Below are positions 50,688-50,696 of a stretch of DNA of 64,000 bases, in pieces. Position numbers and translations under genes: made by a program. The stretch covers positions 159,030,001-159,094,000 of the forward strand of contig OZ024741.1 of the NCBI GenBank assembly GCA_964016885.1. The letters run 5' to 3'. The stretch comes from Eledone cirrhosa (lineage: Eukaryota). Positions within the stretch are counted from its first letter, which is position 1, and every line of letters starts with the position of its first letter. The notes under the pieces are model-generated. The model was not told where the DNA came from. It ran no database searches and saw only the letters and a program-made list of their open reading frames with translations.

Positions 50688-50696
50688 CTCAGTTTC
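50688..50696 (-). CDS. MCF2L: Candidate 9-nt alternative microexon of the DBS/MCF2L-like gene (adds K-L-R)
   Basis: Minus strand: ttcttcctttttctttttttttttctatctggtgtttttacTGCctttaacAG|GAAACTGAG|GTAAGTA. Long AG-free pyrimidine tract, UGC at -12..-10, consensus donor, frame-preserving and stop-free between the phase-2 flanking exons. Confidence 0.7.

Follow-up and report, generated by a model that had tools for sequence, protein, structure and literature searches.

The closest described relatives of the exon reported here are microexons controlled by eMIC proteins (Srrm234 or SRRM3/4). These are 3-27 nt long, preserve the reading frame, carry a UGC near the acceptor AG and reside in genes of GTPase signalling (PMC8797185; 10.1101/2024.09.17.613571). 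The eMIC targets of flies and mammals are characterized by a long AG exclusion zone, UGC near the AG, a UCUC-rich tract and a strong CUAAY branch point (PMC8797185). In humans, the enhancer consists of a bipartite UC..UGC motif, and UGC is present in 74-79% of the SRRM3/4 targets (10.1101/2024.09.17.613571). A 9-nt microexon in the octopod gene for the Rho guanine nucleotide exchange factor DBS (MCF2L) shares with them size, frame preservation, the UGC, the type of host gene, the long AG-free zone and a UCUC-containing tract. Unlike the fly targets, it has no CUAAY branch point, a feature that is enriched in the group and not obligatory (PMC8797185). Its donor follows the consensus, as in mammalian eMIC targets and unlike the fly ones. 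We take fly CG30440 to be the DBS ortholog. For this gene and for mouse Mcf2l, Table S2 of PMC8797185 lists only exons of 41-114 nt; an exon of 9-nt size, as in octopus DBS, is absent.

A second likeness concerns the site. In fly sponge and vertebrate DOCK3-4, the equivalent position of a GEF gene is taken in distant phyla by tiny exons that are unrelated to each other, in the catalytic DHR-2 domain (10.64898/2026.09.05.749416). The DBS counterpart would comprise 9 nt in coleoids and 24-27 nt in echinoderms, the latter as deduced from protein isoforms, and it is located in SEC14 instead. The Sec14 domain of Kalirin (PDB 7UR2, SecSR subclass) has the same fold as DBS SEC14 and lacks the insert (PMC9823006). 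In RefSeq, DBS isoforms from Octopus sinensis (e.g. XP_036365549.1) and Octopus bimaculoides (XP_014773618/27/38) contain the identical tripeptide KLR at the identical junction, but they are uncommented predictions, and the 2023-numbered O. bimaculoides models examined are without KLR. A literature search on microexons in octopus and other cephalopods, MCF2L, eMIC/SRRM and bilaterians yielded no paper on the DBS microexon. A 2019 study by Torres-Mendez in Nat Ecol Evol reportedly covers octopus microexons.

The host gene was identified in the window, i.e. the whole stretch of 64,000 nt that was analysed. The exon upstream of the microexon matches cephalopod proteins named 'guanine nucleotide exchange factor DBS' (13 matches among 27 candidates). 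Across the window and beyond, over 250 kb, the O. sinensis DBS exons align in consecutive order, and the gene runs on for about 187 kb past the window start (L004-L022); several of its exons differ between the window species, an octopod, and O. sinensis. Pfam assigns PF13716, PF23289, PF00621, PF00169 and PF00018 to the DBS matches, and the gene shows both the SEC14 - spectrin - DH - PH (- SH3) architecture and DBS orthology. The SEC14 domain matches Kalirin 7UR2 with E values of 2.6e-29 by sequence and 1.6e-9 by fold. The preliminary description, made from the DNA letters, had placed the microexon inside the SEC14 domain of a Rho-GEF, and this location holds, with DBS/MCF2L as host.

The microexon itself reads AG|GAAACTGAG|GTAAGTA (50696..50688, minus strand). 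It lies in a phase 2 intron of 36,685 nt and divides it into 10,729 and 25,947 nt. Being of phase 2-2, it preserves the frame, and inclusion yields CTIPA-KLR-LYEVEK. A TGC is found at -12..-10 relative to its acceptor, and AG is absent from -63 to -3. The preliminary description had left the strand unstated; the 9-nt exon, both splice sites, the TGC and the AG-free tract of about 60 nt are all present on the minus strand, and a plus-strand reading was rejected, since the motifs are all absent there. Likewise, the proposed insertion of KLR without a frameshift is borne out by sequence, spliced contigs and RefSeq proteins. A repeat origin was rejected, too: The 201-nt region around the microexon is single-copy except for two 30-nt simple-repeat matches. 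The features are listed in the table.

Table. Features of the DBS SEC14 region in the window (positions are those of the window).
Feature	Position	Strand	Basis
Upstream DBS exon; codes for SEC14 strands 1-2 plus the long helix and closes in phase 2	61426..61540	-	protein match; X21 contig; single copy
AG-free zone of 61 nt with pyrimidine tract (0.81 pyrimidine in -45..-4)	50699..50759	-	sequence
UCUCUC at -62..-57, 44 nt ahead of UGC	50753..50758	-	pattern from 10.1101/2024.09.17.613571; putative function
UGC at -12..-10, candidate eMIC-responsive motif	50706..50708	-	sequence; putative function
Microexon acceptor AG (CAG)	50697..50698	-	sequence; spliced contig
9-nt cassette microexon, phase 2-2, adds K-L-R	50688..50696	-	sequence; spliced contig of run X21; run X19; RefSeq proteins
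Consensus donor GTAAGT, exonic GAG just before	50682..50687	-	sequence
Downstream DBS exon, starts LYEVEK	24650..24740	-	protein match; reached by inclusion and skipping contigs
Next DBS SEC14 exon	9704..9817	-	protein match
Final SEC14 exon within the window; approximate 3' end, read from protein match	3979..4095	-	protein match

The host intron contains 4,270 strings of the type AG-N(3-27)-GT, 764 of which are in frame without a stop and 24 of which have, in addition, a GTRAG donor. Eight of these 24 add a YAG acceptor, and one, the microexon, adds a pyrimidine content of at least 0.7. On the antisense strand of the intron, 0 of 3,183 strings pass all filters. Over 264 kb of the DBS gene, a single one out of 20,956 strings does so on the sense strand and none out of 25,516 on the antisense strand; all these counts were obtained with filters set when the target was known. 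Under relaxed filters, 24 candidates pass, and the microexon is the only one with TGC at -16..-5.

Splicing was examined by comparing the upstream exon with 7 of 24 sequencing runs, 6 of which gave cover. All evidence consists of contigs from tissues designated by code, and contigs display the dominant path only, without PSI values. Organism G, to whose code the window DNA belongs, is represented by a single transcript run, X21, which shares this code with the DNA runs X22-X24 of the window. An X21 contig of 3,550 nt covers the upstream exon with 0 mismatches, and its loose end consists of the 9-nt exon followed by the downstream exon. As the other end of the contig departs from the genome at the acceptor of the upstream exon, it represents a spliced transcript. 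A retrocopy as its source is unlikely, because the upstream exon is single-copy in the genome (G000). Inclusion is the dominant path in this contig, which has a depth of 20.7. Run X19 (organism E) includes the microexon, too, with a synonymous exchange of CTG to TTG that keeps the Leu. Runs X2, X4 and X5 (organism A) and X6 (organism B) join the upstream directly to the downstream exon. This means that two of the six covered runs include the microexon and four skip it. In X3 (organism A) the upstream exon is uncovered, so that all three covered samples of this organism skip; no organism code shows both forms among the contigs of the six covered runs. The join of upstream exon, microexon and downstream exon predicted in the preliminary description is present in the contigs of X21 and X19. 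The microexon is real, and across the organisms sampled it is included in some transcripts and skipped in others. In the octopod DBS/MCF2L Rho-GEF gene, it forms a 9-nt cassette exon that is subject to alternative splicing and conserved in coleoids.

The acceptor of the microexon was compared with the 22 other DBS acceptors. It carries the bipartite UC..UGC pattern, with a UCUC-type element 1-50 nt ahead of the UGC, which is found at none of the 22 others and before 322 of 7,224 background YAGs (4.5%). A TGC at -20..-6 occurs in 2 of the 22. The AG-free zone and the pyrimidine content are not diagnostic, since 5 and 3 of the 22, respectively, match the microexon in these properties. A CTRAY branch point is absent from -100..-1 of the microexon; 6 of the 22 other acceptors have one. 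The genome was also searched for a regulator. With the profile PF15230 (SRRM_C, comprising the eMIC region) no match was obtained in the genome at E<=0.001. At a looser threshold, a match of 29.3 bits (cut-off 27, E 0.004) was found at G000:C22:28167743-28167880 on the minus strand (L026), and another exon on that strand, 21 kb further downstream (L027, G000:C22:28146426-28146461), accounts for the remaining model positions. An eMIC-type domain appears to be encoded in the genome over two exons. The proposed eMIC-like acceptor architecture is supported by the UCUC...UGC pattern, seen at no other DBS acceptor, and the presence of a regulator by the eMIC-type domain.

Inclusion of the microexon is probably neural and driven by eMIC. 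Outside neurons, the exon would be too short for exon definition and would be skipped. In neurons, the eMIC form of Srrm2/3/4 might act via the UCUC...UGC acceptor to bring about inclusion, and the consensus donor would help. Less likely, the microexon is real and alternative but varies broadly or is under the control of a different tissue, e.g. muscle or gonad, in either case independently of eMIC; this is an unlikely reading. It would fit the coded tissues of the runs, the lack of a CTRAY branch point and the presence of TGC at -15..-5 before 9% of the background YAGs; the presence of the exon in all 10 O. sinensis models considered (from 15 listed of a 43-member cluster) would also agree with broad inclusion. 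However, the UC..UGC pattern occurs at only one of the 23 DBS acceptors examined, that of the microexon, the genome contains an eMIC domain, and neural programmes predominate for tiny conserved bilaterian exons (10.64898/2026.09.05.749416).

Proteins of related species extend the comparison. KLR is present in all 10 O. sinensis DBS proteins (again from the 15 listed of 43) and in 3 of 14 from O. bimaculoides. It is absent from the models spanning the junction in O. vulgaris (three), Argonauta (one) and named Sepia (two). Among the 2015-numbered RefSeq proteins of O. bimaculoides, P0003, P0005 and P0006 have KLR and P0018 does not. In the Sepia clusters, P0034 carries QLR, and P0012, P0013, P0035 and P0036 are without insert. 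The QLR protein is a Logan transcript protein that belongs to the 90% cluster of Sepia pharaonis, in which two other Logan proteins lack the insert. The same exon recurs in relatives, a check that the preliminary description had proposed: as KLR in Octopus, as QLR in the cuttlefish cluster and with a synonymous change in X19. Only L-R is constant in the coleoid insert. Since KLR is found in Octopus and QLR in a cuttlefish-cluster protein, the microexon is likely to predate the octopod-decapodiform split. This split dates back about 270-300 My. Of the 139 proteins compared in all, 30 had no match to the region and 2 did not reach the junction; among those that cover it, 74 come from other molluscs, and none of these has an insert. 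Annotation often misses microexons, and therefore this absence is soft evidence.

If the microexon were constitutive in the window species and in part of its relatives, but weak or lost elsewhere, the patterns would reflect species and not tissue. In accordance with this, the contigs of each organism code show one form only, and all 10 O. sinensis models considered include the exon. Yet O. bimaculoides has annotated models of both forms, all 74 other mollusc proteins have the skipped form, and the skipped form is folded by AlphaFold with higher local confidence, which together make such a species pattern quite improbable. Finally, the abundance of similar strings in the intron (4,270) would be consistent with a string that resembles an exon by chance, or with splicing noise at a low level. 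This reading is effectively refuted by the X21 contig, where the microexon is the dominant path at depth 20.7, by the X19 contig, where it is kept with a synonymous change, and by the QLR of the cuttlefish-cluster protein.

The expectation that the exon had been missed by annotation proved largely wrong, because octopus RefSeq proteins already carry KLR (10 of 10 in O. sinensis, 3 of 14 in O. bimaculoides). The orthologous exon is already in the automatic annotation of related octopuses. As a further neural-type microexon, the DBS microexon is ordinary. Its value lies in providing a clean, conserved test exon for eMIC activity in cephalopods, on whose microexons the literature search yielded almost nothing. 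As a separate observation, KLR occurs in three 2015-numbered O. bimaculoides models (XP_0147736xx) and in 0 of 10 2023-numbered ones (XP_0528302xx for 8 of them). It is possible that a real microexon was lost from the O. bimaculoides models on re-annotation.

The same junction is used for an insert in echinoderms. Of 150 distant 50%-cluster representatives, the junction is covered in 101, of which 85 are without insert. Three others, longer by 8-9 residues, belong to echinoderm DBS. Among the proteins concerned (P0153, P0289-P0315, P0162), 12 of 15 listed from Asterias rubens/amurensis have an insert of 9 aa and 3 have none; in Antedon mediterranea, 11 of 12 have 8 aa, and in the Holothuria cluster, 3 of 3 have 9 aa. 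These inserts are unlike KLR in length and sequence, i.e. DBS of starfish and crinoids has an unrelated optional insert at the same junction. The one hemichordate protein is without insert. In vertebrates, an insert was found in 0 of the 119 best new matches (118 mammalian, 1 sturgeon), a weak negative, as the set comprised the best 120 of 3,644 ranked by likeness to an insert-free query. Several other length differences at the site were set aside: +19 in a stork and +3 in lamprey SESTD1 are single models, +3 in hagfish is present in 7 of 7 proteins and so not alternative, and +13 belongs to one protein without placement.

The simplest reading of the echinoderm insert is a cassette exon of 24-27 nt in the same intron, which suggests that an exon was gained repeatedly at the DBS SEC14 junction. 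Type I convergence is reported to be common for neural exons in a study that covers, tissue by tissue, exons of O. bimaculoides and sea urchin (10.64898/2026.09.05.749416). The coincidence between coleoids and echinoderms is therefore suggestive of function and not unprecedented. One may tentatively regard the DBS SEC14 intron as a recurrent slot: Coleoids and echinoderms would each have gained a neural microexon, or diverged from one ancient one, that switches SEC14 autoinhibition or membrane docking in neurons, with the coleoid exon being lineage-specific and absent from other molluscs. Recurrent gain at one loop, if true, would point to this SEC14 surface as important for Rho-GEF control. 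The accessible text of the Kalirin structure paper does not single out that surface (PMC9823006).

The effect of the insert on the protein was approached by modelling. In an AlphaFold model of the skipped form, the site falls into the loop that connects helix 51-62 with a short helix 67-72, ahead of a strand. In the model of the QLR form, the long helix extends into the insert, the short helix shrinks, and pLDDT is 58 in the insert block; local confidence is higher for the skipped form in this comparison of different decapodiform proteins with a 27-row alignment and low confidence at the loop. With correspondingly low confidence, the insert is predicted to extend the long SEC14 helix at its end and to reshape the loop ahead of the short helix and strand 3. 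Aligned to Kalirin 7UR2, it falls at about Ser88/Glu89 (numbering by alignment). The Kalirin lipid groove and the residues perturbed by ligand comprise 62-79 and 100-117 (PMC9823006), so that the insert lies beyond the groove. A charge-based effect on lipids is weakly supported, since conservation is limited to L-R, of which the R derives partly from the donor consensus. Hence, of the proposed basic insertion in a lipid-binding SEC14 domain, the SEC14 location stands, and the basic, lipid-site part is weak: The first residue is Q in the cuttlefish cluster, and the site is outside the Kalirin groove. For MCF2/MCF2L, autoinhibition via SEC14-PH has been stated, with reference to others (PMC9823006). 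Taken together, the non-groove site, the weak case for charge and this autoinhibition favour the reading that the insert might change an interaction surface and that the reshaped loop would thereby tune SEC14-dependent localisation or GEF autoinhibition rather than lipid-groove chemistry.

Some further observations were made in this and a second region of the genome. A 33-nt DBS exon between the spectrin region and the DH domain (L010:1692-1724, minus) is skipped in one O. bimaculoides model; UGC is absent near its acceptor in the printed context. Three tandem acceptors past the PH domain (L017:4262, 4244 and 4241, minus) give rise to isoforms with +6/+7 residues in Octopus RefSeq and represent alternative 3' splice sites, not a microexon. 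A cwf21 exon is located 1.2 Mb upstream of the two SRRM_C exons on the same strand; if they form one gene, Srrm2/3/4 spans more than 1 Mb. Within the host intron, broken reverse-transcriptase frames, presumably of LINE type, are found at 28124-30157 (plus) and 41110-42881 (minus) of the window. In addition, the DBS introns contain tandem arrays, apparent as repetitive ORFs, at about 4700-5750, 32700-35000, 44500-46800 and 55500-58700, and the array at 44500-46800 has a period of 466 nt by ORF coordinates.
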